In this document: positions 35,833 through 61,619 of the stretch, piece by piece
How positions within the stretch are numbered: the stretch's first letter is position 1
Layout: each line of letters begins with the position of its first letter
Virus record (IMG/VR): IMGVR_UViG_3300023202_000336
Coordinates: 1-64,000 of that record
DNA: 64,000 nucleotides
Source: a virus
Strand: one strand, 5' to 3'
Notes under the pieces: generated by a model
Told to the model about the DNA's origin: nothing
Seen by the model: the letters and a program-made list of their open reading frames with translations, nothing else
Databases searched by the model: none
Position numbers and translations under genes: made by a program

Positions 35833-38703
35833 ATGCCTTCCAATTTCGCTTTCAGCCCGACTCATAGCTCGCTCATCCCGACGATGAGTAACCAGCCCTT
35901 CGGTGCCGAGCAGCTGACGCCGAATTTCCGAAACTTCCCGACACCGTGGCTCGATTATTCGACGGTCGCGGTGCCCGATAACCACGAACTGGTGATGTGG
36001 TGGGCCCAGTACTTGTGGATCATGGATGGGAACTTCAGAACGGCGATGGAGCGCGTCGCGGCACATTTTGTCACGACCATCGACTTCCCTGACCTTGAGC
36101 CGGGGGAGGAGTCTGTTTGGAAGGACCTTTTCCTTCAGTTCCTCGATTACCGCGCTGAGCTTATGGCTGCGGCGATGGACTACCTGTGTTTCCGAGGCGA
36201 TACGCGGGTGGTGGCTCGCGACGGGATCTATGAGATCTGCGAGCTTGAGGGGAAGGAAGTAGACGTCTTGTCAGAAGGCGGTGTCTATAGGCCGGCCAAG
36301 TTCAAGCGGTTCGGGATCCAGGAGCTTATGGAGGTCGAGTTTAGTGACGGGCGCACCGTGCTCGCTACTCCCGAGCATCAGTGGATCGTTGAAAGTAACG
36401 GTGGATCTATTCGTGTCCCGACTACCCAGCTGGCCGGTCGGCGTATAGAGCGTACCGTAGCTGAGCGTCCCGAGCGCGGTAACGGTTATTCCGAAGGAGT
36501 CCGTCACGGGTTCGTTTTTGGAGATGGATCTACTTATAACAAGCATCGAGAGAATCAGTTCTCGGTAGCGAACTTCTACGGTGATAAGACGGAACTGCTC
36601 CCCTATTTCGAAGGGTTCGGAGGGGAGCCGCGTAAATACGAGTACAGTTACGGAGCTGCCGTTATTAAGATACACGGGCTTCCGGCTCATTATAAACAGC
36701 TCCCGGATCCCGAAGTGAGTGCTGAGTATTGGTACGGATTCGTAAGTGGATTTCTTGCGGCAGACGGGTCTGTCGATACGCATGGTTGTGTTATTCTCAC
36801 TCAGGAGGCGAAAGAGACGCTCGCATCGATAGTCGAACAGCTTCCGCGTATCGGAATGGTCGCAGGACCGATCCGTGGTTACACTCAGGAAAGGACTTTG
36901 CCTGAGTACGACGGAGAGCAGAGGTCTGGTGAGACCACGATGCATTACGTGACGCTTCTGAAGCGTTTCATGCAGCCGGAAGATTTGCTTCTTTCAGGGC
37001 ATCGAGCTAAGTTCGAGGACAAATGGAAAGCGACCAATTACGGTAAATATATTCACGTGAAGAGCGTGAAAGAGACCGGCATCGTCGAAGATGTATACTG
37101 CTGTGTCGAGCACGAGACACACTCTTTCGTTATCGAAAACGGGATACTTACCGGCAATTGCTATGGGAATCTGGTTACGACGCTTTACCTTCCGTTCCGC
37201 CGTTACATGCGGTGCAGGCGGTGCGCACTCGAGCAGCCTATCGAGCGACTCAGCTATAATCTCCAGTTTTCCGCATCACCGCCGCATCTGATCTGGCGCC
37301 GCCGTGCCGATTGTCCGCGTTGCGGCGATAGTGCTCCTTACGAAGTAGTCGATCGTCGTGATAGCGATCTCGGGAAGGTCCGCATTAATCGTTACGATCC
37401 TTCTGATATTGAGATCGCCTGGAACAGGCATAGTCATAAGAAGGATATTTACTGGAGGATTCCCGAGGAGGACCGTCGAGATATTCTCGGAAAAGCCCGT
37501 ATCCATATCGATACGACTCCGCTCGAGGTTCTCGAGGCGGTTGCTGTCAACGGGAGACTTCGTTTCGAAGATAACATGGTCTTCCATCAGGCCGAACCTA
37601 ATATCTCCGGGATCAAGACGAGAGGCTGGGGTATTCCCCGGTCTATCTCGAACTTCAGGACCGCATGGCTTCAGCAATTGATCAACAAGCTCGATCAGGC
37701 AGTTGCGATCGATTACACGCTCGGTATCCGGCTTATCAGCCCGGCTGAGACGTCCGGATCTACTGACCCGCTTCAGACGCAAGGGCTTGAAAACTTTGCC
37801 TCGAAGATGAGTTCGATCGTTCAGGAGCACCGGGCGAACCCGGCGTCGTACCATACGTCGCCGTACCCGGTAAACTATCAGTTCCTCGGTGGCGAAGGCA
37901 GCGACGTCATGCCGGCTGATAAGATCAAGTTCCGTCAGCAGGAGTACCTGAACCAGCTCGGCGTGCCGCTCGAGTATCATCAGATGAATCTGCAGTCGCA
38001 GGCAGCGCCGATGTCGCTTCGGATGTTTGAAGCGTTCTGGCAGGGTATTCCGAGCTTCTACAATCGCCTCCTCGAGTGGGTCACCACGACGCTCTCGCGC
38101 GTGTACAACCTCGAGGATACACGCGTTCAGATGCAGAAGACCACGATCGCTGATGATCTCGAGCGTAAGGCGGTACTGTTGCAGCTGATGTCCGCGAACC
38201 AGCTCAGCCCGGAGACGGCGCTGCGTCCGTACGGCATCGATGCGCACGAGGAAGTGAAGAAGGTCTTCTCGCACGAGGACTACGTGGCGAGATTGCAGCG
38301 TGAGGCGGAAGAGCGTCAGCTGAATCGTGAAGAGATGGGTGTCATGAAGGGCATGTCGGCGCACCCGACTCCGTCGCAGATGGCGATGCAGCAGCAGGGG
38401 GCTGCTGCCGGGGGGATGCAGCCGCCTCCTCCTGGCACCCCGATGGGCGGCGTTCCGGCCGGCGGCCTCCCGCAGATGGGCCCGACCCCGCAGAGTCTCG
38501 AGGCTATGGGCGAGCAGGCCGAAATGATCGCTCAGCAGCTGGTGGGTCTTGATGAGTATACTCGGAAGCAGGAGCTCAAGGCGCTGCGGGAGTCGAATAA
38601 GGATCTGCATGCGCTTGTGACGAAGAGCATGGAGGAGATTCGGAGTGCTGCCCGCTCGGAGGGTGGACACATGCTCCTTTCACAAGGGGCAGGGGGCGTG
38701 TAA
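35833..38703 (+). CDS. Portal-like protein with intein
   Basis: Spliced junction DYL-CYGN matches the portal YGN motif; helical body; Gln/Pro/Gly-rich tail; located in the head block. Confidence 0.65.
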   Translation: MPSNFAFSPTHSSLIPTMSNQPFGAEQLTPNFRNFPTPWLDYSTVAVPDNHELVMWWAQYLWIMDGNFRTAMERVAAHFVTTIDFPDLEPGEESVWKDLFLQFLDYRAELMAAAMDYLCFRGDTRVVARDGIYEICELEGKEVDVLSEGGVYRPAKFKRFGIQELMEVEFSDGRTVLATPEHQWIVESNGGSIRVPTTQLAGRRIERTVAERPERGNGYSEGVRHGFVFGDGSTYNKHRENQFSVANFYGDKTELLPYFEGFGGEPRKYEYSYGAAVIKIHGLPAHYKQLPDPEVSAEYWYGFVSGFLAADGSVDTHGCVILTQEAKETLASIVEQLPRIGMVAGPIRGYTQERTLPEYDGEQRSGETTMHYVTLLKRFMQPEDLLLSGHRAKFEDKWKATNYGKYIHVKSVKETGIVEDVYCCVEHETHSFVIENGILTGNCYGNLVTTLYLPFRRYMRCRRCALEQPIERLSYNLQFSASPPHLIWRRRADCPRCGDSAPYEVVDRRDSDLGKVRINRYDPSDIEIAWNRHSHKKDIYWRIPEEDRRDILGKARIHIDTTPLEVLEAVAVNGRLRFEDNMVFHQAEPNISGIKTRGWGIPRSISNFRTAWLQQLINKLDQAVAIDYTLGIRLISPAETSGSTDPLQTQGLENFASKMSSIVQEHRANPASYHTSPYPVNYQFLGGEGSDVMPADKIKFRQQEYLNQLGVPLEYHQMNLQSQAAPMSLRMFEAFWQGIPSFYNRLLEWVTTTLSRVYNLEDTRVQMQKTTIADDLERKAVLLQLMSANQLSPETALRPYGIDAHEEVKKVFSHEDYVARLQREAEERQLNREEMGVMKGMSAHPTPSQMAMQQQGAAAGGMQPPPPGTPMGGVPAGGLPQMGPTPQSLEAMGEQAEMIAQQLVGLDEYTRKQELKALRESNKDLHALVTKSMEEIRSAARSEGGHMLLSQGAGGV
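36187..37158 (+). mobile_element. Intein with LAGLIDADG homing endonuclease (324 aa)
   Basis: C1 of CFRGDT; TPEH block B; GFVFGDG and GFLAADG motifs; ends FVIENGILTGN with +1 Cys. Confidence 0.92.
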
Positions 38704-45018: not shown

Positions 45019-48000
45019 ATGCCGTTTACGGCTTGGTCCCCTGATCACGCTCGCCCAGGACTGGGGCCGGCTCCATTCGATCCGCCGACTCCGGCCGCGA
45101 AGCCCGTGCAGCTGCGTCGATTCGATGACATCGAACAACAGCGAAAGGCTATCTACGAGTCCGCGCGGAGTGCGTTCCAGAATCTTCGTCCGATTCAGAA
45201 CGCGTCGTACCGAATCGAAGTAGCTGACGTCGATTACGACACCCCTGATTTCGAGCCTTCGATCTCCGACGAAAAGAAGGCGCTTCTGCAGAGCGGGTCG
45301 CTTCATCGCCCCCTTAAGGGCACGGTTCGTCTGGTTGATCAGAATACCGGAGACGTAGTTGGTGAGGAGCGGACGACGCTCGCACACGTGCCACACCTCA
45401 ACAGTCGTGGTATGGTGATCCGAAAAGGAGTTGTCTGGGTTCCGCGGAACCAGGCCCGCTTGAGACCCGGCGTGTATACGCGTCACAAGAAGAGTGGCGG
45501 AATAGAGGCGCAGTTCAATGTGAAGGGTGGTCGCGCCTTCCGTATCGAGCTCGAGCCAGAGTCCGGTCTTTTCAAGATGAATATCGGCCAGTCGACCACC
45601 CGTCTCTATCCGATTCTTCGTGCGATGGGTATCACTGATGACGCGATGCGAGAGGCGTGGGGTGACGAGCTGTTCAAAAAGAACTATCGACGTGAATCCG
45701 GGAGCGACGACAAAGACCTGAGAAAGGTCGTGAAGAAGCTCGGACCTTCGGGGGTGACTGTCGAGGATGATCAGCTCGTTGACGTATTAAAGGAGTCGGT
45801 ACAGAAGTCGAAGGTCGATCCGGACGTCATGGAAATCACGATGGGGGAGCGAGCTGAGAACGTCGCCCCTGAGCATCTCTTTCAGGTGACGAACAAGATT
45901 TTGAACGTGAGTCGCGGGACTGCTGACGGCGATAACCGCGATTCGCAGGCGTTCCAGTCGATTCATTCTGCCGAGGATTTCATACGGGAACGGCTCGAGA
46001 AAGATCAGGTAGGAGCGCTGCGTAAACTCCTCTGGAGGGCGACACGAGAGAAGAAGCTTCCGAAGGTCCAGTCGGGGCTGATGAATAAGAACATCTCTTC
46101 GATTTTCGAAGGCTCCGGTCTCGCGGTCGCTGCAGAGGATATCAACCCGTTCGAGATTCACGACCTACGGCAGGGGATCATTCGACTCGGTGAGGGCGGG
46201 ATCAGCTCAGAGAGGGCTGTGAGCCGCGAGGCACGCGGTGTGCAAGCGAGTTACGCAGGTCTGATCGACTCGGGGAGAGGGCCGGAGTCGGGAAGACTCG
46301 GGTTGGATCTGCGTGTGACCGATGCAGCGCAGAAGGGCGACGACAACCAGCTCTATACCGAGGTGAGAAATCTCAAGACCGGTGAGACTGAAACTGTGTC
46401 TGCGAGAACACTTTCTTCGAAGATCGTCACCTTCCCTGGCGAACTCTCGTCCGATACCAAGAGAATCCCGGCGATTAAAGGCGATAAGATCGTTTACGTC
46501 CCGAAAGACGAGGTCGATTACGAGATTGCGAGTCCGAATGACATGATGTCACGGGCGACCGCGATGATCCCGTTTCCAGAGTCGATCAAGGGCCAGAGGC
46601 TGCTCATGGGCGCGCGTATGACCTCCCAGGCTCTTCCGCTGGAAGAGGCTGAAGCGCCTTATGTGCAGACAGCGTCGAAGGACGGGACTAGCCTTCATAA
46701 ACAGATGGGCCCGGTCGTTGGTGCCCGGGTTTCTCCGGTCGGAGGGGTTGTAACGAAGATTTCTCCCGATTTCATTGAGCTCGCGGCCGATGACGGCAAG
46801 AAGCGTCGTATCGACCTTTACAACAACTATCCGACTGCTCGTAAGACGATGATACATAACGAGCCCACGGTGAAGAAGGGTCAGCGGATCAAGGAGGGTG
46901 ATCTCGTTGCGAAGTCAAATTTTACGAGCGACGACGGGACTGCGGCCGTAGGGCGTAATCTTCGTACCGCATTTGCGATCGCAGAAGGCAATACGATCGA
47001 AGACGCGTTCGTCATTTCGGAGTCGGCAGCGAAGAAGCTCACGTCGCAGCATCTCTATAAGCATGACGTCGATTTGAAGGATCTCGAATCGACGGATAAG
47101 AAGCGGTACGTTTCGATATACGCTGATAAGTGGGGTCCCGAGCAGCTCGATCGATTGGATGATGACGGGGTCATTAGAGAAGGAGCAACGGTAAACGCCG
47201 GAGACCCGGTTGTTCTCGGTTTTGCGAAGAAAAAGAAGCGAGGTGTCGGGGCGCTGATGCGTTCGCCAAGAGATGCTTTCGCTGATAAAACGCAGACGTG
47301 GAATCATCATTCGCCGGGCGTAGTGACGGACGTGGTGAAGGGGCGTAAAGGGATAAAGGTTACGCTCAAATCAAAGGAGGCGATGAAGCCGGGCGACAAA
47401 CTGTGCTATAGCCCTGACCACGAAATACTTACACAGCGCGGCTGGATACCCGTCTCAAAGACACTACACTCTGATCTGATAGCCTCGCTAAACCCGGATA
47501 CGGATGAAATTGAGTACGTTCGTCCGGTGGAAATACATTCTTTCGATCACGATGACGTAATGTATGAGGTCGAGTCTACACAGGTGTCGATGTGCGTTAC
47601 TCCCGACCACAAAGTATATGCTTCTAAAAAGAAGGATAAGAAGGATCTCGATTATCATCTTTTTGAGGCGCGAGAGTTGTTCGGAAGGACATATCGTCTC
47701 AAAAACTCTGGGAGGTGGGCAGGAGAGTCTCCAAGTCACATCGTGTTCCCTGAGTGTCAGGTTAAACACGGTGGAATAGGTAACTCATATCGCACTATTC
47801 CTGAAAAGGCAATATCAATACAGGCTTATTTCGTTCTGTTAGGCCTCTTTCTGTCTGAGGGGAATGTATTTAAACACGTGAAGAGCGGGAGCTACGGTAT
47901 AGACATAACTCAGTGTAAAGAAAGTAATATAATCAAAATAAAGCACGTGTTGGATAGCCACGGTATTAAGTATTCTCGTAATAAGACTAAGTTCCGGCTT

Positions 48001-50544
48001 TACGGGCGTCAGTTGCTTAATTATTTTGAGCAATTTGGAAAGTGCCACGAGAAATATATACCCAACTGGGTTTTTTCGTGTAGCAGTGAGGACCTTAAAA
48101 TACTCTTCGAATGGATGATGCTTGGAGATGGGCACTATAGTGCTACATGCGCTTCTTATGTGACTACGTCTAAAAATCTCGCCGACGACTTTCAGAGGCT
48201 TTGTCTTCATATCGGATACGCCGGAAAGGTAAAAGCTACTAATAGAGAGCCGTGTATTCTCAAGTTTCCGGGTAGAGAAGACGTCACTATTCCTAAAACA
48301 CGGTACGACGTAAGCGTGTATAGGGGTAAGCTGAATCCTACCATTAATCACAGCCATACGAGGCACCAGCGCGGGCAGTCTGAGAGATGGGTTAATTACA
48401 CGGGAAAGGTGCATTGTGTAACTCTTGAGAGGAATCATATACTTTATACGCGTAGGAACGGGAAGGCTCATTGGAGCGGCAATACCTCGCGGTACGGGGC
48501 CAAGGGTGTAATTTCAGAGATTCGACCTGATGAGCAAATGCCGACTGACGACGACAGTCGACCGGTCGAGGTGATTGCGAATAGTCTCGGAGTGATCTCT
48601 CGGACCAATCCTTCCATGCTTGCTGAAGCTATTCTCGGAAAGATCTCAGAAAAAACGGGCAAGCCGTACGTGATCAAGGGGTTCGGAAATTCCGGTGACG
48701 TTGTGGAGTATGCGCTTCGCGAAGGAGTTAAGCATGGGGTCGTAAGTGTCGATGACGAAGGCAATATAACCGACGTTGGCGTACTCACCGATCCGAGGGA
48801 TAACCGGAAGATCAAAAATATGTTCACCGGAATCCCGTATCTGATGAAGCTACACCACGTTGCAGAAGCGAAGATCAGCAGCCGTGATACCGGCGGTTAC
48901 ACCGCTGAAGGAATACCTGCCCGAGGCGGGAAAGAAGGCAGCAAGCGGATTGGGCTTCTCGACGCGCATAGCTTGCTCTCAGCCGGAGCTACCGAGTTTC
49001 TCAAAGATGCGAAGCTCATTCGTGGGCAGCGTAACGACGAGTACTGGCGAGCATTAAAGGCGGGTGATACCCCGTTGCAGCCAACGGTTTCGTTTGCGAA
49101 TGAGATGTTCAAGTCGCAGCTTCGAGCAGCTGGGGTCAATCTTCGTGAAAAAGGGACACGTACCGGTCTCGCGCCGCTCCTTGATCAGGACGTTGATAAG
49201 ATCGCTCAGCATGAGATTGAGCGTCCCGGCACTTTTGATTTCGAAACGATGCGCCCGATCAAAGGTGGTCTTTTCGATTTGACGGCGACTGGTGGAGCGG
49301 AAGGGACTCGGTTCTCGAAGATCACGCTTCCGAGAAAGATTCCACATCCACTTTTCGTCGAGCCGATCCAGCGGGTGCTTGGTCTGACCGGTAAGCAGTT
49401 CGAAAATGTTCTCTCCGGGAAGGAGGAGCTTCACGGCGAAACTGGCCCGGACGCGGTCGAGAAGGCGCTCAAGAGTCTTGATGTAGACCGAGAGATCGGC
49501 CTTGCGAAAGAGGAGATTCGCACCGGAAAGAAAACGCGTCGTGACAAGGCGGTGAAGAAGCTGAATTATCTTACCGGTATCAAGCAGATGGAGATCAATC
49601 CAGAAGATCTGATGATCAGCAAGATCCCGGTGATCCCTCCCCGTTTCCGCCCGATTTCGAAGGCGAAAAATATCGACATCGTCCACGACTTGAACTACCT
49701 CTATCACGACCTGTTAGAGGCGAAGAAGAACTATAACGATGCTCAGGAGGTGTTCGGAGAGGCTGACGACGAATATATGACGATGATGAATGCGGTGAAA
49801 TCCGTCGCGGGGTTGCGTGAACCGGTGAATCCGAAGTCAGTCGATCAGGGCGTGAAGGGCATTCTTCGCTACGCGATTGGAATCGGCGATAGTCCGAAGT
49901 CGGCAACCTTTCAGCGTAAGGTGATAGGAAGTGCGGTCGATACAGTCGGGCGCGGTGTTATTACGGCCGACTCGAACCTCGATATGGACGAGGTCGGTGT
50001 TCCTGAGGATATGGCGTGGAATATCTTCAAACCGTTTACGATGCGTCGACTCCGTCGCTACGGGTATTCTGCTCGTGACTCGCTCAAGGCGGTTAAGGAT
50101 CGCACCCCGGTTGCCAGGAAGGCGCTTGAGGAAGAAATGGCGGAGCGACCGGTCGTTTACAACCGCGCCCCGTCGTTGCACCGCTACAGCTACGTAGGCG
50201 CTTGGGGCAAGATCAGGGACGATGACGCGATTGGTATGCCCTACCATACTTTGAAGGGGCTGGGAGGTGACTACGACGGGGATACGGTGAACATCCATGT
50301 TCCCGTTTCGTCTGACTCGGTCGATGAGGTCAAAGAGAAGCTCATGCCGAGTAAGAACCTCTATTTCACAGGTACCTTCGAGACGCACCTCGAGCCGAAT
50401 CAGGATTATTTGGCCGGACTCTTCCTTGCGAGCATGCCGGATCCGAAGGAAGAGGTAAAAACGTTCGCAAACGAAGAAGAGGCTCGAAAGGCCTATGCGC
50501 GAGGAGAGATCAGCGCACGAACGCCGATCCGTATTCTTGCGTGA
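45019..50544 (+). CDS. rpoB: RNA polymerase beta subunit fused to the N-terminal half of beta', with intein
   Basis: beta motifs QRLLMGARMTSQALPL, GDKL|TSRYGAKGV, NSLGVISRTN, YLMKLHH, GSKRIG; beta' motifs GGLFD, PVIPPRFRP, DLNYLY, DTVGRGVI, NRAPSLH, GGDYDGD, PNQDYLAGL. GAGG SD before ATG45019. Confidence 0.95.
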   Translation: MPFTAWSPDHARPGLGPAPFDPPTPAAKPVQLRRFDDIEQQRKAIYESARSAFQNLRPIQNASYRIEVADVDYDTPDFEPSISDEKKALLQSGSLHRPLKGTVRLVDQNTGDVVGEERTTLAHVPHLNSRGMVIRKGVVWVPRNQARLRPGVYTRHKKSGGIEAQFNVKGGRAFRIELEPESGLFKMNIGQSTTRLYPILRAMGITDDAMREAWGDELFKKNYRRESGSDDKDLRKVVKKLGPSGVTVEDDQLVDVLKESVQKSKVDPDVMEITMGERAENVAPEHLFQVTNKILNVSRGTADGDNRDSQAFQSIHSAEDFIRERLEKDQVGALRKLLWRATREKKLPKVQSGLMNKNISSIFEGSGLAVAAEDINPFEIHDLRQGIIRLGEGGISSERAVSREARGVQASYAGLIDSGRGPESGRLGLDLRVTDAAQKGDDNQLYTEVRNLKTGETETVSARTLSSKIVTFPGELSSDTKRIPAIKGDKIVYVPKDEVDYEIASPNDMMSRATAMIPFPESIKGQRLLMGARMTSQALPLEEAEAPYVQTASKDGTSLHKQMGPVVGARVSPVGGVVTKISPDFIELAADDGKKRRIDLYNNYPTARKTMIHNEPTVKKGQRIKEGDLVAKSNFTSDDGTAAVGRNLRTAFAIAEGNTIEDAFVISESAAKKLTSQHLYKHDVDLKDLESTDKKRYVSIYADKWGPEQLDRLDDDGVIREGATVNAGDPVVLGFAKKKKRGVGALMRSPRDAFADKTQTWNHHSPGVVTDVVKGRKGIKVTLKSKEAMKPGDKLCYSPDHEILTQRGWIPVSKTLHSDLIASLNPDTDEIEYVRPVEIHSFDHDDVMYEVESTQVSMCVTPDHKVYASKKKDKKDLDYHLFEARELFGRTYRLKNSGRWAGESPSHIVFPECQVKHGGIGNSYRTIPEKAISIQAYFVLLGLFLSEGNVFKHVKSGSYGIDITQCKESNIIKIKHVLDSHGIKYSRNKTKFRLYGRQLLNYFEQFGKCHEKYIPNWVFSCSSEDLKILFEWMMLGDGHYSATCASYVTTSKNLADDFQRLCLHIGYAGKVKATNREPCILKFPGREDVTIPKTRYDVSVYRGKLNPTINHSHTRHQRGQSERWVNYTGKVHCVTLERNHILYTRRNGKAHWSGNTSRYGAKGVISEIRPDEQMPTDDDSRPVEVIANSLGVISRTNPSMLAEAILGKISEKTGKPYVIKGFGNSGDVVEYALREGVKHGVVSVDDEGNITDVGVLTDPRDNRKIKNMFTGIPYLMKLHHVAEAKISSRDTGGYTAEGIPARGGKEGSKRIGLLDAHSLLSAGATEFLKDAKLIRGQRNDEYWRALKAGDTPLQPTVSFANEMFKSQLRAAGVNLREKGTRTGLAPLLDQDVDKIAQHEIERPGTFDFETMRPIKGGLFDLTATGGAEGTRFSKITLPRKIPHPLFVEPIQRVLGLTGKQFENVLSGKEELHGETGPDAVEKALKSLDVDREIGLAKEEIRTGKKTRRDKAVKKLNYLTGIKQMEINPEDLMISKIPVIPPRFRPISKAKNIDIVHDLNYLYHDLLEAKKNYNDAQEVFGEADDEYMTMMNAVKSVAGLREPVNPKSVDQGVKGILRYAIGIGDSPKSATFQRKVIGSAVDTVGRGVITADSNLDMDEVGVPEDMAWNIFKPFTMRRLRRYGYSARDSLKAVKDRTPVARKALEEEMAERPVVYNRAPSLHRYSYVGAWGKIRDDDAIGMPYHTLKGLGGDYDGDTVNIHVPVSSDSVDEVKEKLMPSKNLYFTGTFETHLEPNQDYLAGLFLASMPDPKEEVKTFANEEEARKAYARGEISARTPIRILA
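47404..48483 (+). mobile_element. Intein with LAGLIDADG homing endonuclease (360 aa)
   Basis: C1 of CYSPDH; TPDH block B; LGLFLSEG and WMMLGDG motifs; ends HWSGN with +1 Thr; visibly AT-richer than its flanks. Confidence 0.93.
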
Positions 50545-50587
50545 TTGTCCATCTGGTACTGTCGCTACTCGAGAATAGGATACGTAC

Positions 50588-51613
50588 ATGACACCGTTAC
50601 AGCTGAAACTCTACAAGCGGTCCTTCGTTCCGATGGGGCCGTCCGCGGAGAAAACCGGCCAGCAGGCGTCCGGACCCGGCGGAATGCCGGTCGGTCCCGG
50701 CGCTGGCGCTCCTCCGCCTCCGGGAATGATGCCTCCTGGTGGAGGGATGCCTCTGCCTCCTGGCGGCGCCGGCGGGACGCCTCCGCCCCCGGGTATAGGA
50801 CCGATGGATCCGTCAGCTCCGATGGATCCCGCTGCGGGTGGTGCCCCTCCGGCCGACCCTATGGCTGCACTTCCTCCGATGCCGGGGGAGGAAGGGCTCG
50901 ATGTGCCACCGGAGACGCTTCCGGAGGACCTCGGAGCCGCCCCTGAGGGCGGGGGTGACGGTCTTTCTACGGCAGATGCAGAGGCGGCTGCGAAGATCCA
51001 GCAGCAGACGCTCGATATCGTCGAGCGGACGCTGGACATGGTCGGTAAGACCAAGAAGGATAAGCCGCAAGAGGGTGCCCAGGACCTGCAGCAGGACGGC
51101 CAGGAGCAGGCCGATCAACAGCAGGAAGAACCACCTCCTGAGGCTCAGCCGGGACCTATCACCGGTGAGCCCGGCTTTAGCCCGGGCATGATTAATGGTC
51201 CACTTAAGCTGGGCTCGGCATCGATTGTTACGAAGGCCCTCAAGACGGCGGCTGCTCGTCGTGCCGCTACTAAGACGGCTGCGGTGCTCACGCAGCTGTT
51301 GGTTAAGAACGCTCAGTCCTCAGCCGATATCTGGCGTAAGAAGCGTGGAATGAAGCCCGGCCAGCGCGTGACGGCTCCGAGTAAAGCGTATCGTACTGGG
51401 GTTGCTGGAGGGGCAACGGCGATGACTTCTACGCAGACTCCTACGACTACGCAGACTCCTACGACTACGCAGACTCCTACGACTACGCAGTCCTCCGCTG
51501 ATATTTGGCGTCAGAACCGTGGAATGAAGCCCGGCCAGCGCGTGACGGCCCCGACGGAGGGGGCAGGGGCGGTGACTTCTCGGCAGACTCCTACTGGTTA
51601 TTACTCTCTATGA
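50588..51613 (+). CDS. Pro/Gly-rich disordered protein with a duplicated C-terminal module
   Basis: KLGS, KTAA x2, KNAQ; TQTPTT repeats. Confidence 0.75.
   Translation: MTPLQLKLYKRSFVPMGPSAEKTGQQASGPGGMPVGPGAGAPPPPGMMPPGGGMPLPPGGAGGTPPPPGIGPMDPSAPMDPAAGGAPPADPMAALPPMPGEEGLDVPPETLPEDLGAAPEGGGDGLSTADAEAAAKIQQQTLDIVERTLDMVGKTKKDKPQEGAQDLQQDGQEQADQQQEEPPPEAQPGPITGEPGFSPGMINGPLKLGSASIVTKALKTAAARRAATKTAAVLTQLLVKNAQSSADIWRKKRGMKPGQRVTAPSKAYRTGVAGGATAMTSTQTPTTTQTPTTTQTPTTTQSSADIWRQNRGMKPGQRVTAPTEGAGAVTSRQTPTGYYSL
51314..51554 (+). repeat. Duplicated QSSADIWR..RGMKPGQRVTAP module flanking three 18-bp tandem repeats
   Basis: Copies at ~51314-51380 and ~51488-51554; ACGCAGACTCCTACGACT x3 at 51431-51484. 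Confidence 0.9.
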
Positions 51614-53271
51614 GGCTTGGGAAGTTCGCCTTTGGTAAGTCCGCTCAGTACCAGGGCGCACCGGTAGGTGGCGCTGGGATGATGTGGAACCCGATGGGGA
51701 TGTTGCAGCAAGCTCATCAGCAGCGTTTGCAGCACGGGCAGCGCTCCTCGGATTTCGCATATGGACCTCCCGCAGCGCCTGGATTCGTGACAGGGCAGCA
51801 GGCGGCGGTAGGAGGCGCCCAGGCGGTAGCTGGTTCAATCGGCGCGCTGATTATGGGCGTCGCGATGCCTTACATTCAGTCTGTCGCAGGCGAGGCCGGC
51901 GTTGACCTTCATCAGCCGTATCAGATCGCTTACGGGGCGAATCCGGCCGATGCTCGAGAGATCGCACGAGTCACGGGTCAGGTCATGCAGCGTCAGTTCG
52001 AGACGACCGGTGCGAGTGTTCAGGGCCTCATTTCAACGTTGGACGAGCAGGTTGAGAAGAATTTTGGTATCGAGCTTCCTCTTGAGGAGATCCGCCATCT
52101 TCCCGCCGGAGCTGTTGGAAACTTCGTTCAGCAGCTTTCTATGTTCGTTCCCGAGATTCAGACGGTTCTTTCGACGATGGATCCTCGTTATATTTCTGAC
52201 CTCTCACCGATGGTGAAGGCGACTTACGTCGCAAATAATGGTGAGTTCGATCCAAACGTATTTAGAAACGTCGTTCAGGATTTTCAGCAGTCCTACAATA
52301 AAGGGCAGTTCAGAGGAGTCCCTGCCCAGATCGCGATGCATGCGGTACAGTATGCGAAAGAGCGAGGCGGTCCTGGCGCGGGAATGCGGGAAGCGGTAAA
52401 CGCTGCGCAGTCTGCGAACGCATTCGTTCAGGCGGGACTTGCGCCGAGCTTCGGAGAGGCGCTCACGCTTGTAAACGAGGTTGATCCAACTGGTGGCCTC
52501 ATAAATCCGACGAGAGCGATTCGTTACGCATCCCAGCTGAACGAGATGGCGAAACGCGGATTCGTCGATCGGAAGCATATCTTCGAAGCCGCCCGTGTCG
52601 CTCGGCAGCAGGGTCTCCCAATTAGGGCGGCGATGACGGCAGTCGCTGGCGGCGGCCGTGCACGAACGATGGTGCGTGGACCTCGTGGAAGTGAGCTCGC
52701 GGAGACCGCGGCGAGTACGATGGCCCGCATGGGCGAGTCTGACACGATGCGGCTACTCGCGGCAGCGCACCAGCAGAGCCCGAGGGCACGGGGCCTCATT
52801 GAGCGGGCGCTCGAGACGGGCGATAACCGCCTCCTGGACCGCGTTATACAGAAGGCCCAGCAAAGCCCTCGTCTGATGGCCTCGAAGACTCATGTCGACC
52901 CTTCATACCTGATCAACCGGATGGATCCGAATATGATGCGCGGTCAGGTCATGTCAGATGTGCGGCGATTCGCTGCGCAGACTGGCAGCCGCGACCTTCA
53001 GCGGCTCGTGAACCGCCCCGAGGAGCTTCAGAGACGTCTTCGCACGCACGATTTCACTGGTCTTGATCCGCAGGCGGTTCGGTACTTGAGTGAAGGCGGC
53101 CCGACTGGCGGCCGTCTCGGTGCAGCTGCGATGACGTTCGCAGACCCGTTCGGCACCGAGTCTGACCTCTCGAGGTACCATAAGCCTCCGAAGCGGCTTG
53201 GTCTCCCGTTCCCGGAGATGAAGCCGAGCGGCCCTCCCGTGACACAGCGTTTCGATCCGGTCGAACGGTGA
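51610..53271 (+). CDS. Helical internal-virion-like protein with a hydrophobic segment
   Basis: ATGA coupling; KFAF/KSAQ at the N-terminus; Ala/Arg-rich helical body. Confidence 0.75.
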   Translation: MRLGKFAFGKSAQYQGAPVGGAGMMWNPMGMLQQAHQQRLQHGQRSSDFAYGPPAAPGFVTGQQAAVGGAQAVAGSIGALIMGVAMPYIQSVAGEAGVDLHQPYQIAYGANPADAREIARVTGQVMQRQFETTGASVQGLISTLDEQVEKNFGIELPLEEIRHLPAGAVGNFVQQLSMFVPEIQTVLSTMDPRYISDLSPMVKATYVANNGEFDPNVFRNVVQDFQQSYNKGQFRGVPAQIAMHAVQYAKERGGPGAGMREAVNAAQSANAFVQAGLAPSFGEALTLVNEVDPTGGLINPTRAIRYASQLNEMAKRGFVDRKHIFEAARVARQQGLPIRAAMTAVAGGGRARTMVRGPRGSELAETAASTMARMGESDTMRLLAAAHQQSPRARGLIERALETGDNRLLDRVIQKAQQSPRLMASKTHVDPSYLINRMDPNMMRGQVMSDVRRFAAQTGSRDLQRLVNRPEELQRRLRTHDFTGLDPQAVRYLSEGGPTGGRLGAAAMTFADPFGTESDLSRYHKPPKRLGLPFPEMKPSGPPVTQRFDPVER

Positions 53272-53502
53272 ATGCGCATTCACAATGAGGAACGGTTGAT
53301 GATCGTCCGTATCGTCCATGAGAACGGGAAAATCTATGATATGCCGGTCTCCCAGGTCTCGGTACATACTGAGAACGGCGACCCGTGTATGCTCGCTTAC
53401 GAGCACGCAAATCTGATAGTTTGTTCCCATGTGAACGAAAAGGACTTTGAACGGCAGTGTGCGCAGCTGAAAATCGACCGCATCGAGGTGCCCCATGCCT
53501 GA
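53272..53502 (+). CDS. Small hypothetical protein
   Basis: Abuts the previous stop; overlaps the next start. Confidence 0.65.
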   Translation: MRIHNEERLMIVRIVHENGKIYDMPVSQVSVHTENGDPCMLAYEHANLIVCSHVNEKDFERQCAQLKIDRIEVPHA

Positions 53503-53809
53503 CTGTGCGGTAGAGCAAGAAGCAATCGAGCGTCTCAGGTCATTAACCTGTGATGCGATGATGCATTATTTCGAAACTTTCGATGAGTATCCGACGCATC
53601 TGTACGTGAATACTGGGTCTGATGCTGAGAGGATCGTGAGATCAGCGCTTGAGAGGGTCGGTACCACCGAATTTCTTTTTGCGTTGACGGTTGTTCTCCG
53701 GAAGTTCTCTTTCGGGAAATCTGATCTTTTCGTCGGTGAGGACCGGTACGCCTCGGATATGCGGCGCTGCGCGGTGTTGAGCTATCGAAATTACAGTTCA
53801 GGCTCGTGA
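53495..53809 (+). CDS. Small hypothetical protein
   Basis: GAGG SD; ends 3 nt before the beta'-C gene. Confidence 0.65.
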   Translation: MPDCAVEQEAIERLRSLTCDAMMHYFETFDEYPTHLYVNTGSDAERIVRSALERVGTTEFLFALTVVLRKFSFGKSDLFVGEDRYASDMRRCAVLSYRNYSSGS

Positions 53810-53812
53810 GAC

Positions 53813-55687
53813 ATGGCTGATATCACGACTGTTGGTACGATTCTTATTAATGACGCGCTGCCTGAGGATATGCGTAAGAAGGAGCATCGTCTCGATAAAA
53901 AAGGTGTTCACGAGCTGTTTATGGAGCTCGCGAAGAAACATCCGGAGAAATACAGCGCGGTTCTGCAAGAACTTTCGAATGTAGGAAAAACGGCTGCATG
54001 GACCGAGGGGCTGAGCGTGAGTCTCGCGGCGCTTCGTAAATCGAAAGCGAAAGAAGCGATATTGCAGCCGGTCAGAGAGAGAATCAGAGCGATCGTCGAT
54101 GACGATGATCTCAATGATGAAGAGCGAAACGAAGCTATTATTAACGAGCTTATGAAGGTTTCGAACGATCTGACGGAGGCCATTTACGAAGAGTCGAAAG
54201 CGGAGGGATCGCCTTTCGCAGTTCAGATCGAAAGCGGTGCGCGTGGAAAGAAGTCGAATCTCGCAAGTCTCCGAGGGGCCGATTTACTCGCGACTGACCA
54301 AAACGATAACTTCATTCCTGTTCCGATATGGAACTCATATGCCGAAGGGCTCACTCCGGCGCAATATTTTGCTGCGAGTTACGGGCAGCGGAAAGGTATG
54401 CTGAATACGAAGCTCGCGACGGCAGATGCTGGATTCCTCTCCAAACAGCTCGTGAACGCTGCACATCGGCAGGTTGTTACGAGGGACGAGCCTGAGGCGA
54501 CGCGCCTTCCAGTGGGCCTTCCGACGAGGACGGACGATAAAGATAACATTGGAGCCGTTCTCGCCCAGGACGTCGGTAAGTATACAGCTGGAACCGTTCT
54601 CGACGATGAGACGCTCGAAGACCTCCAGGACGAAGGTATCGAGGACATTCTCGTGCATTCGATCATGACCGAGCCGTCTGCGGACGGGGGCGTGAGTGCA
54701 CAAGCGGCAGGACATCGTACCCGTGAAGGACTTCATCAGCTGGGGGACAATATCGGTATCCCTGCCGCGCAAGCGGTTGGCGAACGATTGAGCCAGGGAT
54801 CTTTATCGGCGAAGCACTCCGCTGGAGTTTCAGATCGTGTCAGTAAATCTGGGTTCGAGTACATCAATCGCCTCATCCAGGCTCCCGAGAGCTTTCCCGA
54901 GGCAGGACCGCTCGCGGAAGAAGATGGCTTGGTCGAAGACGTCCGTGAAGCTCCGCAGGGTGGTAACTATATCCGCGTGAAGAAGCGCGAGTATTACATC
55001 CCTCCGGGCTTGAACGTGACGGTCAAGGTCGGCGACGAGGTAGAGCAGGGTGATGACCTCAGCGATGGGACGCCGCACCCAGGAGATCTGGTTCGCCTTC
55101 GCGGGATCGGCGAAGCGAGGCGGGTTTACATGCAGAACCTCAAGGAGGCGCTCGATGCCTCGGGAGTCGACGCACATCGACGCAACGTTGAGGCTGTTAC
55201 GGCCGGGCTGATAAATTGGGCACGTGTGACCGACCCTGACGGCATCGATCAGCACATTTACGATGACGTAGTTCCTTTCAACAACTTGGCTTACAGCTAT
55301 AAGCCTCGTGCTGACGCTGAAGAACTCGAACCGAAGAAGCTCGTAGGACGTTACCTGGAGGAGCCGGTCCTCCATTATACGCCAGGAACACGGGTGACCC
55401 GGAAGATCGCGAAGGATCTCGAGAAGTGGAAGATCAAGAAGGCGTTCGGTCACCAGGATCCGCCCGAATTCGAGCCCCACATGGTCCGCGGTCTTCACAG
55501 TATTTTCCACGATCCGGACTGGAGGACCCGTCTTTCAGGCTTTTATACTGCTTCGGCCTTCCAGAAATCACTTCACCGAGGGCGCGAATCTGATGTCCAG
55601 AGCACGAGTTACGTCCCGTCTCTGACGACACCGCAGGTGCTCGGCCGGCAGCTGAAGACGCTTGGCAAGTACGGTCAGCAGAGATAG
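53813..55687 (+). CDS. rpoC: RNA polymerase beta' C-terminal half
   Basis: SGARG, EGLTPAQYFAASYGQRKG...TADAGFLSKQL (bridge helix), GIPAAQAVGERLSQ...KH (trigger loop), VKVGDEVEQGDDLSDG. Confidence 0.95.
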   Translation: MADITTVGTILINDALPEDMRKKEHRLDKKGVHELFMELAKKHPEKYSAVLQELSNVGKTAAWTEGLSVSLAALRKSKAKEAILQPVRERIRAIVDDDDLNDEERNEAIINELMKVSNDLTEAIYEESKAEGSPFAVQIESGARGKKSNLASLRGADLLATDQNDNFIPVPIWNSYAEGLTPAQYFAASYGQRKGMLNTKLATADAGFLSKQLVNAAHRQVVTRDEPEATRLPVGLPTRTDDKDNIGAVLAQDVGKYTAGTVLDDETLEDLQDEGIEDILVHSIMTEPSADGGVSAQAAGHRTREGLHQLGDNIGIPAAQAVGERLSQGSLSAKHSAGVSDRVSKSGFEYINRLIQAPESFPEAGPLAEEDGLVEDVREAPQGGNYIRVKKREYYIPPGLNVTVKVGDEVEQGDDLSDGTPHPGDLVRLRGIGEARRVYMQNLKEALDASGVDAHRRNVEAVTAGLINWARVTDPDGIDQHIYDDVVPFNNLAYSYKPRADAEELEPKKLVGRYLEEPVLHYTPGTRVTRKIAKDLEKWKIKKAFGHQDPPEFEPHMVRGLHSIFHDPDWRTRLSGFYTASAFQKSLHRGRESDVQSTSYVPSLTTPQVLGRQLKTLGKYGQQR

Positions 55688-55711: not shown

Positions 55712-58015
55712 ATGCCCAACACGAGTGAGACGGCTCTCGAGAAGACCTTTTCCGACCTGGCGTATTCACATCTCCGGGACCAGAGCCAATCGCTTCTGGA
55801 TTATCTGGTCGGATTCCAGCTTCTGAAGTCCGAGGACGACGGTGAGCGCGCGGTCGGGATTTTCGGTTTCGAGGTCGATAACGACTATTACTACGCCCCG
55901 ATCTTCTTCCTGAACGGAGAGATTCGTGGGCTCGATACGCTTTATTCGGTGAAATCGGATCTCTTTATGCCGATTACCGAGGGCTGGGTCAATCACGTGA
56001 TCAATCGTCGGCAGGCGAATCTCGGCGATTCTGACCGCCGTGACCGTCGTGCTCGTGGCATCAACTACCCGAACTACACCCGATTGAAGATCATTCCCGG
56101 CGGGTCTGGCTCGGTGAATCTGAAGTTGGCGTCTGAGCAGCGTGAGGCGATGATCACGGCGATGACTTCGGAGCGTGAGATCCCGAGACTCAACCTGATT
56201 CAGGGCCTCAAGGAGGCCGGTGCGACCGAGTTCTTCAAGGAGGCGATGGAGCGTCATCCGAGAATGCTGGAGGCGTTCAATCAGTTCTACAATGTTTTCG
56301 ATCTCGAGCCTCAGCGGAAGCAGGCGGCCGAGGAGAAAGATCTTCCCGAGCCGGTGACGATCATTACGTCGATGACGGACGAGGGGGTCGATCAGCTGAC
56401 CGACGAGCAGCGTGAGACGCTTCTTGAAGGCGGCGAGGTTGCGATCGATAACCGTCCGGAAGTCTCTCGTTCGATCCTGTACAAGAAGGAAATCAAGCAG
56501 GTACTCGAGAACCCGACTAAGGGCGGCCTCTACGATGTCCTGTGGTACGATGGTTCGGTCTATCCGGCGCTGATCGCCCCGACCGGATCGTCGAAGAATG
56601 AGGTCACGGTCTATTGCCCTGAATTCGATATGCATTGCGAGATCGACAGTCGCTGTGTGTTCATCGCCCGTCGTTACGGCGATGAAGAGTTGCGCCGCTG
56701 GCTCGAGGATAACGCGGTGCCTGCGAGCGAGGCCCGCCCTGGGCAGTCCGGTATTTTCGTGAGCACCGAAGGCGAAGGGACTGGCGCTTTCTGTATCGAG
56801 GGGGCGACCCAGGGCGTCGACGGTTTGACGATTTACATCGTGCATGACACCTATGAGATGAGGGCGCTCGACGGCCATAGCGGACTGAACGTGATAGGTG
56901 GAGCTTCGCGCGGCAATAACGGAAATCCGACGCCGAATATGTATAAGGAACTGTCTTTCGGCGGAAGCGGGATGCATCACATGATCCCCGGGTTTTCGAA
57001 TCGCCCGGCGGAGGACCCGAACTGCCGCGTCAGTTCGATTATCGTCGCTCCCGAAGGCGGGTCGAATCCTCGGTACTCGAAGGACAAGTGCATCGTCAAT
57101 GACAAACACTTCTACTTCTTGAAGCTGAACAACTTCACGCTTCGTAAGCCTGAGTACGATGACCTTAATACGGCTCGGAGAGAGGAAGAGAAGTACAACG
57201 CGCCGAAGTACGACGTTGTCTTGAGCAAGACCGATTTCGGAAACTACGATACGCTTGCTGAAGGCCTCGATAAGGTTGCGGGCGACCTCAAGTCGTGGAA
57301 CGACGGAGATCAGATCGTGATCGACAGTGAGATCGGTCGTTACTCGATGAACAAGACTGCCGCCTTCAGACACCTGATGGTCGATCAGGGGCTTGGAGAA
57401 GATGACGCGAAGTTGGTGCTCAAGGAAGCCTCGCGTCAGCCGAGTACCTACAAGATCAAGAAGGTCGCAGCGTCCGAGACCCAGCTTCTTCAGCTTCCTG
57501 ATGTCGATGATACCGATGTTGGAGGGCTGCTCTCGTCGTTCCATCGGACACAGGTCCCGTATGCCACGGCGAATCAGGCTCAGACGATCGATAACCGTGA
57601 GTTCTATCGCTACTACTCTCCGTACGGGAGTGGTGGAGCGCCGGATAATGAGACGGACACGTTCTCCGTTCTTGAAGAGGCCGGAAAGACGGGTCAGAAG
57701 GATGTCTTCGATGCAGCGGCGCTTGCGTCGTTGATCAAGAATCATAACCCGACCGATCTCGTCGATCGGTTCCTTCCGACGATCGTTTCCGGGATGGACC
57801 GTATCGGCCGGATGCTGTTCCTGATCTACTGGCACTACGAGGACTTTGAAGAGCGCTACGGGGAGAACGACCTCAGCGAGCTGATCGATAATCTCCGTTC
57901 CGTCTTCGAGCAGCTGGGAGATGTGATCATCTCGGCGAAGAAACGGACGCTTTCTGGCGATCCCGAACATTACGGAATGGAAGCAGCTCCGCTTCTTGAA
58001 GGCGGAATGTCGTGA
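55712..58015 (+). CDS. Large K-x-A-cohort virion/head protein
   Basis: KLAS, KQAA, KVAG, KTAA, KEAS, KVAA. Confidence 0.8.
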   Translation: MPNTSETALEKTFSDLAYSHLRDQSQSLLDYLVGFQLLKSEDDGERAVGIFGFEVDNDYYYAPIFFLNGEIRGLDTLYSVKSDLFMPITEGWVNHVINRRQANLGDSDRRDRRARGINYPNYTRLKIIPGGSGSVNLKLASEQREAMITAMTSEREIPRLNLIQGLKEAGATEFFKEAMERHPRMLEAFNQFYNVFDLEPQRKQAAEEKDLPEPVTIITSMTDEGVDQLTDEQRETLLEGGEVAIDNRPEVSRSILYKKEIKQVLENPTKGGLYDVLWYDGSVYPALIAPTGSSKNEVTVYCPEFDMHCEIDSRCVFIARRYGDEELRRWLEDNAVPASEARPGQSGIFVSTEGEGTGAFCIEGATQGVDGLTIYIVHDTYEMRALDGHSGLNVIGGASRGNNGNPTPNMYKELSFGGSGMHHMIPGFSNRPAEDPNCRVSSIIVAPEGGSNPRYSKDKCIVNDKHFYFLKLNNFTLRKPEYDDLNTARREEEKYNAPKYDVVLSKTDFGNYDTLAEGLDKVAGDLKSWNDGDQIVIDSEIGRYSMNKTAAFRHLMVDQGLGEDDAKLVLKEASRQPSTYKIKKVAASETQLLQLPDVDDTDVGGLLSSFHRTQVPYATANQAQTIDNREFYRYYSPYGSGGAPDNETDTFSVLEEAGKTGQKDVFDAAALASLIKNHNPTDLVDRFLPTIVSGMDRIGRMLFLIYWHYEDFEERYGENDLSELIDNLRSVFEQLGDVIISAKKRTLSGDPEHYGMEAAPLLEGGMS

Positions 58016-60635: not shown

Positions 60636-61619
60636 ATGCCTTTCGCAGAGGTCGCTGCCGACGTTCTGACTGATCCTCAGAAGCAGATGAAAGTTGCCGC
60701 GGAGGTGGGTGACGAGGAGGCGCAGTCTGCTGAGGAGCGTGCGAAGAGTCGTCGTCTCAAGGCGATTCTTTATACGTTGGCGGGGATCGGTACCGTAGGG
60801 CTTGGTTCTTACTTTCTTCTCAAACACCCCGATAAGGTCGCTGAAGGGGTGAGAAAGGTTTTTGGTGGAGAGGAAGAGCCAGAGCAGACCGCTGCAGAAC
60901 GTTTGAAAGGAGCGGTTACCTCTCCGAGTATAGCGGGCGGTCTTGCTTACCTCGGTGCCGGAACTCGAACTGGCGCTTCGTATCTTCCGAGGACGCTTCA
61001 GAAGTTTCCGTTCTTTACGGGTGACCGTGCGCTTTCGCTCGAAAATCTTCGAAAGCATATTGCCGCGGTCTCAACACCTGAAGGTCAGACAGCAGCCGCG
61101 CAGGCGAAGACCCCTGATCAGAGGCTCGGGGCTCTTATGACGGATCTTCCAGAGCTGGAGCAGCGCAGAAAGTTGCATAAAGAGCTGGGAAGGGCTCGAG
61201 GCAGAGAGGGGTCGATATTGAATCTCATCGCTGCTGATCCGAAACTTAAGCGCATAGATGAGATCTTGCAACTTCCTCGTGCGCAACAGCAGGCGCTGAT
61301 AAAGAAATTGAAGGCCCCGGCAAGGACCATTCCCGGTCTTTCCGGCCTCCAAGACGTACGGTTCATGAAGAACCTTGAGCGCGGCTTAGGAGAACTCGCA
61401 GCACAGGAAGGAAGGAAAACTCCTGGAGCAGGAGAGCGCGCGAGAGCTGTTAGGCGCTTTCTTGGAGCGGATCCTGAGACGCTTCACGGTGCGCTGAGGT
61501 CGTACCGGAAGGCACGTGCTCCGAGAAGTTTCTGGGGAGGCGTCGGGCGAGCTGCTGTTGTTCCGACGGCAACTATGGTCCCCGGTGCGCTTGAGACTTA
61601 TGAGGCATGGACTGACTAA
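60636..61619 (+). CDS. Gly-zipper K-x-A-cohort protein
   Basis: GGAGGA SD; KVAA; ILYTLAGIGTVGLGSYFLL hydrophobic helix. Confidence 0.78.
   Translation: MPFAEVAADVLTDPQKQMKVAAEVGDEEAQSAEERAKSRRLKAILYTLAGIGTVGLGSYFLLKHPDKVAEGVRKVFGGEEEPEQTAAERLKGAVTSPSIAGGLAYLGAGTRTGASYLPRTLQKFPFFTGDRALSLENLRKHIAAVSTPEGQTAAAQAKTPDQRLGALMTDLPELEQRRKLHKELGRARGREGSILNLIAADPKLKRIDEILQLPRAQQQALIKKLKAPARTIPGLSGLQDVRFMKNLERGLGELAAQEGRKTPGAGERARAVRRFLGADPETLHGALRSYRKARAPRSFWGGVGRAAVVPTATMVPGALETYEAWTD

Follow-up and report, generated by a model that had tools for sequence, protein, structure and literature searches.

The first 64 kb of the virus record IMGVR_UViG_3300023202_000336 (64,000 nucleotides, hereafter the window) encode a multisubunit RNA polymerase (RNAP) in which the two largest subunits have been re-partitioned: the beta subunit and the N-terminal half of beta' (beta'-N) are made as one polypeptide, chain 1, and the C-terminal half of beta' (beta'-C) is made as a second polypeptide, chain 2, from a separate gene downstream. 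This arrangement, which proves to be genuine and conserved, a form of the phage multisubunit enzyme that has so far gone unremarked, had been put forward in a preliminary description of the window, and the structural claims made there all hold. The source is an uncultured phage, a single IMG/VR record of 180,134 bp with direct terminal repeats and a CheckV completeness of 100%, and the long open reading frames (ORFs) of the window lie nearly all on the plus strand.

The gene for chain 1 (45019..50544, plus strand) encodes, in one frame, beta, an intein and the N-half of beta'. The frame is open to 50544 for 1847 codons from 45001 or 1841 codons from the ATG at 45019, where the database record of the protein (P0003, 1841 amino acids (aa)) also begins, and the 1841-aa precursor aligns end to end, except for the intein, with gp206 of the cultured Salmonella phage Arash. 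Pfam matches to RNA_pol_Rpb2_6 (E = 4.6e-36), LAGLIDADG_3 (E = 2.3e-07) and RNA_pol_Rpb1_2 (E = 4.1e-19) are accompanied by a weak one to RNA_pol_Rpb1_1 (E = 1.6e-06, under the cut-off). When compared with the Escherichia coli subunits by BLASTP, chain 1 corresponds to beta 1-1337 followed by beta' 154-552; the counterparts of chain 2 are beta' 713-939 and 1187-1273. The N-terminal extein of beta (45019..47403, plus strand, aa 1-795) aligns with E. coli beta 1-224 and 420-884 and ends at the GDKL of the beta double-psi barrel, while the C-terminal extein (48484..49152, plus strand) aligns with beta 1069-1337 and, in the junction alignment, extends to the equivalent of the E. coli beta C-terminus. 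The N-half of beta' follows immediately (49153..50541, plus strand); as judged from the rpoC_TIGR profile (positions 156-533) and a MAFFT alignment, it comprises the clamp helices and the beta' double-psi barrel, lacks the zinc ribbon and ends near E. coli beta' residue 552. The passage from one subunit into the other, which had been proposed to follow the beta sequence QLRAAGVNL at about 49150, can be placed at nucleotides (nt) 49152/49153 (..LRAAGVNLREK|GTRTGLAPLL..). The chain also ends, as had been noticed, soon after the catalytic loop: the GGDYDGD motif (nt 50263-50283), aligned with NADFDGD of E. coli, lies 86 residues before the stop.

The remainder of beta' is encoded by the gene for chain 2 (53813..55687, plus strand, 624 aa), the start of which is separated from the end of the first gene by 3,268 bp, in agreement with the distance of about 3.3 kb given earlier. 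Chain 2 matches RNA_pol_Rpb1_5 (E = 1.1e-18) and RPOC_hybrid in Pfam, positions 549-1059 of the rpoC_TIGR profile (E = 2.8e-62) and beta' chains in the PDB (E = 4.5e-41). Since chain 1 stops at position 533 of the NCBI rpoC profile and chain 2 begins at 549, almost nothing of beta' is lost at the break. Alignment of motifs locates the bridge helix at nt 54365-54466 (chain 2 residues 185-218, aligned with E. coli beta' 769-805) and the trigger loop at nt 54791-54874, where the histidine motif (..SAKHSAG.., nt 54791-54829) retains its His; both SI3 and the second zinc site are absent. Pfam, BLASTP and motif alignment thus agree with the preliminary description in assigning both double-psi barrels to chain 1 and the mobile catalytic elements to the ORF beginning at 53813. 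The catalytic residues are maintained across the family: at least 90% of 67 homologues retain each of the two beta lysines (GDK .. GxKG; in the window GDKL|TSRYGAKG once the intein is removed), and no less than 90% of the family keep DxDGD. An AlphaFold2 (AF2) model of chain 2 alone had a predicted confidence (pLDDT) of 53, too poor for a structure search.

Close inspection of chain 1 revealed a feature absent from the preliminary description, a 360-aa intein with a LAGLIDADG homing endonuclease (47404..48483, plus strand) that splits the beta motif GDKL|..|TSRYGAKG. It was recognized by reading the sequence, through the LAGLIDADG_3 match and by comparison with intein-free homologues that are seamless at this point. 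The element has the make-up of a class 1 LAGLIDADG intein, with an N-terminal Cys (Cys1, C796), a TxxH in block B (TPDH), two LAGLIDADG motifs (..LLGLFLSEGN.. and ..MMLGDGH..), a terminal Asn (..SGN) and a Thr at the +1 position; the residue before the terminal Asn is Gly instead of His (..HWSGN), and the inteins of one homologue, P0115, likewise end in TGN. Not all active inteins have a penultimate His. The G+C content of the element is 0.444, as against 0.54-0.56 in the exteins, and it is missing from 65 homologues, which read a seamless DKL(T/S)xR(Y/H/F)GxKG; the nearest relatives (65-71% identical) are also without it. After splicing, mature chain 1 would measure 1481 aa, and because the intein sits inside the beta active-site motif, splicing would be a precondition for activity.

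To define how widespread the layout is, chain 1 was searched over its whole length against 5.8 billion proteins and the best 120 clusters were examined. All of these carry beta and beta'-N on one chain, except P0079, which contains beta only, and beta'-C (Rpb1_5) is found on the same chain only in P0115. Approximately 65 of the 120 measure 1440-1530 aa and the rest are longer through one to four intein-sized inserts; the contigs that encode the fused chain reach 217 kb. More than 100 clusters share the gapless passage from beta into beta'. When 65 intein-free homologues are aligned with Arash gp206, the junction shows no gap and is well conserved, and every aligned homologue of chain 1 ends within one residue of ..TPIRIL. 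A scan of IMG/VR with the single protein gave no match, and loci were recovered instead with an alignment as query, which yielded 53 with relatives of beta'-C. At 43 of them the fused beta::beta'-N gene lies upstream of a separate beta'-C gene on the same strand, with a single high-scoring segment pair across the junction. The remaining ones comprise a single-ORF locus (L065) and nine without an upstream signal, for three of which the upstream sequence is shorter than 2 kb. The distance between the two genes ranges from 13 bp to 6.0 kb at the 43 loci and is 4.8 kb in Arash, 0.64 kb in Vibrio phage D181 and 8.6 kb in P0108; one locus, 68% identical to the window (L011), repeats its gene arrangement around the polymerase. 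An artefactual fusion, caused by a frameshift or read-through, is ruled out by the conservation of the junction in the homologues and at 43 of the 53 loci.

The same partition is present in cultured phages. Arash (OQ632216, PMC10585845) encodes gp206 (1525 aa), with beta'-C downstream as gp216 (606 aa), together with a sigma-like protein, gp10, and Vibrio phages D69, D148 and D181 have a beta::beta'-N protein of about 1500 aa and a beta'-C of about 610 aa. These phages share with the window genome the position of the polymerase genes between portal and capsid, the loss of the beta' N-terminal zinc ribbon, the sigma-like gene and a genome of about 180-187 kb; they differ in being only 28-30% identical to the window proteins and in keeping the four cysteines of the second zinc site. 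In addition, gp206 has no intein, and the genes that these phages have between the two polymerase genes are unlike those of the window; in Arash they lie mostly on the other strand.

By searching with chain 2 for longer proteins, we also found a group of full fusions from uncultured phages (P0183-P0216, P0239 and L065; on contigs of about 13-184 kb), in which beta, beta'-N and beta'-C form one chain of about 2,020-2,130 aa that is 26-34% identical to the two chains of the window. They belong to the same clade and share the junction and the loss of the zinc ribbon, but their beta' is continuous: where the window has a stop after ..PIRILA and a new start at MADITTVG.., the full fusions read through. 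Compared with these continuous relatives the two ends abut without extra residues, which excludes trans-splicing of beta'-N and beta'-C by a split intein. A tree of beta' (36 rows, 1039 columns, IQ-TREE quick search) placed all fused-type phage enzymes in one clade with a support of 100, apart from bacterial beta' on a stem of 1.09 changes per column. The interior of the clade is a three-way polytomy of Arash with Vibrio phage D181, of L015 with the pair formed by the window and L011, and of 19 full fusions; grouping of the split forms on one side of a branch is weak (support 76). A single event, either fission or fusion, would suffice to explain this pattern. In this quick-search tree the branch leading to Rhizobium phage RHph_Y65 is very long, and its sister position is not to be trusted. 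The window is one more member of a large family, marked out by the intein in the beta catalytic motif and by a complete loss of cysteine.

That loss extends to both mature chains: none of the 1481 residues of chain 1 and none of the 624 of chain 2 is a cysteine, and all 10 cysteines of the precursor lie in the intein. Of 67 intein-free homologues of chain 1, 57 are equally free of cysteine. The first zinc site of beta' (Cys70/72/85/88, in a ribbon equivalent to E. coli beta' 58-95) is deleted throughout the fused clade. The second (Cys814/888/895/898, E. coli numbering) has disappeared from the window, L011 and L015 but persists in Arash, Vibrio phage D181 and the full fusions.

The complete genome contains one beta and one beta'-N, that is, a single RNAP set. 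Profiles of alpha (PF01000, PF01193) and omega (PF01192) gave no match at E 10 anywhere in it, although the controls gave matches in 14 of 14 genomes, and alpha (PF01000) was likewise not found in any of five complete relatives. The preliminary description had recognized no alpha, omega or sigma; this is correct for the window, but a sigma-70-like ORF homologous to Arash gp10 (27% identity, E = 4e-17) lies outside it, at positions 88124-88906 of the same genome (L012 2125-2907). This ORF scores 36.9 bits against Sigma70_r3, above the Pfam cut-off, matches sigma factors in the PDB and can be aligned, with E-values near 1e-9, across regions 2-4 of the FliA/WhiG and SigB/F/G profiles; the Sigma70_r2 profile found no match in the genome. 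ORFs of 240-356 codons that match Sigma70_r3 are present in 10 of 10 related phage records, one of which encodes a full fusion.

The genomic setting of the polymerase bears on its possible function. Its two genes are located between a portal gene (35833..38703, plus strand, 956 aa; BLASTP to Arash portal gp204, E = 2.6e-45), which has an intein of its own (Intein_splicing, aa 132-440), and the homologue of the major capsid protein Arash gp226 (genome positions 66273-67211, 312 aa). Downstream, as in Arash, are homologues of the virion proteins gp218 and gp222, the first being a 767-aa protein encoded at 55712..58015 (plus strand; BLASTP to gp218) that is 54% identical to a 765-aa ORF of L011. 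In the proteome of purified Arash particles, gp206 was the most-detected protein with 3516 spectra, gp216 yielded 1210 spectra, gp10 was covered to 100% and gp218 was also found in virions; the authors suggested a role in early transcription and allowed, in addition, for the carry-over of abundant proteins (PMC10585845).

Because the polymerase genes stand between portal and capsid and the Arash counterparts were detected in virions, we read the enzyme as a virion-carried core, and consider it probable that this core consists of the two chains, is independent of alpha and works with the phage sigma-like protein. Chain 1 would be made as the 1841-aa precursor, from which excision of the intein would rebuild GDKL-TSRYGAKG. 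In the mature polypeptide the end of beta would run into beta' at about residue 15, so that both barrels and the Mg-binding DxDxD loop would be held on one molecule, and chain 2 would dock onto it non-covalently, supplying the bridge helix, the trigger loop and the remaining beta'. The covalent link between beta and beta' would replace the alpha dimer as the assembly platform, a role suggested because neither alpha nor omega is encoded, and promoters would be recognized by the phage sigma-70-like protein. The enzyme would be packed in the capsid, delivered with the DNA and would start phage transcription independently of the host polymerase, a step with which a cysteine-free and zinc-free make-up fits. 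In its fullest form, this proposal holds that the beta-beta' link takes the place of alpha in a self-sufficient two-chain core, devoid of cysteine and zinc, that is packaged together with a sigma-70-family factor; that combination we consider somewhat less likely than not. If true, it would be the first sigma-dependent bacterial-type RNAP holoenzyme to travel inside virions and to be ejected from them into the host, and it would form a natural link between the multisubunit and the single-chain types of two-barrel polymerase.

Several points weigh against a packaged, alpha-independent and sigma-dependent enzyme. Packaging is suggested by analogy with Arash, a relative at 28-30% identity whose authors allow for co-purification. 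The absence of alpha and omega comes from sequence profiles, and the genome may encode a divergent analogue or the enzyme may use the alpha and omega of the host. The sigma-like ORF scores under every curated NCBIfam cut-off and could redirect the host polymerase instead. Finally, with Gly and not His before the terminal Asn, the splicing competence of the intein is assumed.

The alternative that survives best is a two-chain enzyme that is not packaged at all but made after infection to transcribe middle or late genes, while host RNAP, perhaps redirected by the sigma-like protein, would serve the early ones. We judge this unlikely, although three observations speak for it: the genome has a single RNAP set, unlike the pairs of virion and non-virion enzymes of the phiKZ type, neither chain shows a propeptide or conserved processing site, and carry-over of highly expressed proteins, as the Arash authors acknowledge (PMC10585845), could account for the particle proteome. 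The genes, however, are embedded in the head block in the window, in Arash and in the Vibrio phages; gp206 ranks top by spectra and exceeds even the major capsid protein (PMC10585845); and the family-wide loss of cysteine and zinc would bring no obvious benefit to a purely cytoplasmic enzyme.

More doubtful still is a hybrid enzyme, in which the phage chains would recruit host alpha, omega or both and the fusion would not substitute for the alpha platform. Bacterial beta-beta' fusions, of the Helicobacter and Wolbachia type, still work with alpha, and the models PRK09603 and PRK14844 match both window chains, which are far closer to bacterial beta and beta' than the phiKZ-type enzymes are. On the other hand, an enzyme delivered by the virion would not bring host alpha with it, the long stem of the clade (1.09 changes per column) gives little reason to expect that alpha contacts were kept, and the phiKZ and AR9 cores are active without alpha (PMC7598289). 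That chain 1 could be a polyprotein, from which a phage protease would release beta and beta'-N by cutting at the beta/beta' junction, to give a set of pieces like that of other phage RNAPs, is very improbable: processing is common among the head proteins of large phages, and there is a K-I-A triplet 16 residues past the junction, but its Lys is replaced by A, E, R or T in relatives, so that there is no conserved Lys-x-Ala cleavage site, and the junction is short, gapless, conserved and homologous to the beta C-terminus and to beta' 15-60, unlike a linker.

Multisubunit polymerases with fused or divided large subunits have been described in several lineages, from all of which the window enzyme can be told apart. 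The phiKZ and AR9 enzymes are also encoded by phages, lack alpha and omega, have a beta' split just past the double-psi barrel and include one virion-packaged form (PMC7598289, PMC7824862). In contrast to the window enzyme, which has a continuous, fused beta and a single set, they come in two paralogous sets, their beta is in two to three pieces and never joined to beta', and they use no sigma-70-like factor; tblastn with both window chains found no enzyme of this type at E 1e-5. The cyanobacterial and plastid rpoC1/rpoC2 division, cited in the preliminary description as a similar split, falls in the same inter-domain region after the catalytic barrel, and the window halves match TIGR02387 and TIGR02388; the break, however, is at a different residue, as chain 1 ends at position 548 of the 619 in the gamma profile and the match to rpoC2 opens at residue 26 of chain 2. 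The enzyme there is cellular, with a separate beta subunit and with alpha and omega. The Helicobacter and Wolbachia rpoBC proteins have the covalent beta-to-beta' link, and both window chains match PRK09603 and PRK14844 with a break at positions 1940/1948 of PRK09603, but these cellular enzymes are full-length, at about 2,850 aa, possess zinc sites and work with alpha and omega, whereas beta'-C is detached in the window.

The deep-branching phage lineage cited in the preliminary description, mReC, resembles the window in comprising uncultured tailed phages whose bacterial-like beta and beta' branch outside the cellular clades (Weinheimer & Aylward 2020, PMC7481178), but it is a different group. 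In the part of that source considered here (about 20 of the 97 contigs in Supplementary Data 2), beta (920-1563 aa) and beta' (902-1370 aa) are encoded by separate genes (PMC7481178), and the capsids are of the T4-like gp23 type, for which the profile PF07068 found no match in the window genome. Two further cultured phages, Ralstonia phage RP13, with separate beta' pieces, and Rhizobium phage RHph_Y65, with a whole beta' of 1128 aa, match weakly and were set aside, their beta' being partitioned unlike that of the window. We also observed that unannotated records filed as Staphylococcus, Listeria and Enterococcus phages, as well as two Salmonella enterica contig records, match in the manner of ordinary bacterial rpoB/rpoC; by this sequence likeness they look like host DNA filed as phage.

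The architecture could have been standard in described relatives, which the preliminary description had named as lowering its novelty. It is indeed standard in a large phage clade that includes Arash, but the published labels there read only beta and beta', the fusion passing unremarked (PMC10585845). Comparison with the reports on mReC, Arash and P23-45, the jumbo-phage RNAP reviews, a 2021 comparative genomics overview and a 2026 jumbo-phage review turned up no published description of the beta::beta'-N plus beta'-C partition or of the fused phage enzyme of about 2,050 aa, within a literature coverage that is incomplete. Many database entries of the family bear no more than the label 'RNA polymerase subunit beta' or none at all, and the architecture is thereby obscured. 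How the large subunits of an RNAP meet without alpha is a point raised by the reviewers of phiKZ and AR9 (PMC7598289), and the present clade offers a simple, testable answer, namely that beta is tied to beta'. Its enzyme is near enough to bacterial RNAP for residue-by-residue alignment, it has a recognizable sigma-like partner, and Arash is in culture. Moreover, the clade supplies this polymerase both as a full fusion and with beta'-C cut loose at one precise residue, a ready-made test of which covalent links a two-barrel enzyme needs.

The 3,268 bp between the two polymerase genes contain four co-directional ORFs, none of which gave a family, Atlas or structural match to transcription. The first (50588..51613, plus strand, 341 aa) is 44% identical over 134 aa to an ORF of L011, has no match in Pfam, PHROG or NCBIfam and was uninformative in the ESM Atlas. 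The second (51610..53271, plus strand) encodes about 553 aa from an ATG, or 588 aa from a TTG at 51505; it matches no family, is 34% identical to a 623-aa ORF of L011 and appears in the ESM Atlas from residue 36, with weak tape-measure-like leads only. Both are conserved in L011 and neither occurs in Arash, and as Pfam, PHROGs, NCBIfam and the ESM Atlas gave no signal for them, they were rejected as RNAP subunits. The third, a small ORF of 67-76 aa (53272..53502, plus strand) upstream of beta'-C that had escaped the 80-aa ORF threshold, is conserved only within the near subclade, being 39% identical to a 74-aa ORF of L011 and also present in L016-L018 and L021; its AF2 model (pLDDT 81) has five strands and one helix and matches nothing in the PDB. 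The fourth (53495..53809, plus strand, 104 aa) may not be a gene, as it matches no family and has no BLAST match among the small ORFs of the relatives. An omega-like subunit just before beta'-C was considered and rejected on the same grounds, the 104-aa ORF lacking a homologue and the fold of the smaller one lacking a PDB match. Promoter- and terminator-like sites between 44000 and 56500 did not exceed the shuffled expectation, and Rfam gave no match there.

In many relatives (P0128-P0181; L015 16166-19339) beta'-C, 38-45% identical to chain 2, carries an additional 500-1100 C-terminal residues. This extension has no Pfam match, and it is not a fusion to the 767-aa protein encoded after chain 2 in the window, as the two share no similarity.

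The fused RNAP gene is also a hot spot for inteins. Across the family (P0003-P0122), inserts of about 320-540 aa occur at roughly a dozen sites, which in the extein numbering of the window lie at about 372-405 and at 424, 535, 607, 796 (the site of the window intein), 834, 940, 1070, 1186, 1270 and about 1395; the last of these adjoins the DxDxD loop, and one protein may carry up to four inserts. P0115, a full fusion of 3098 aa, has three inteins, of which one occupies the position of the window intein and another immediately precedes the trigger-loop His. Elsewhere in the window, the portal protein of 956 aa compares with one of 579 aa in Arash, while the gp222-like structural gene (61619-63523, 634 aa) matches Intein_splicing at about aa 254-355; with inteins in the RNAP, portal and gp222-like genes, at least three genes of the head block are therefore intein-bearing. 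In Vibrio phage D181 (L002 9431-10342) the annotation divides the fused RNAP gene into two ORFs; it is interrupted by a group I intron (RF00028, 100.7 bits), after which comes a gene for a homing endonuclease, and RNA splicing therefore probably yields a continuous D181 protein.

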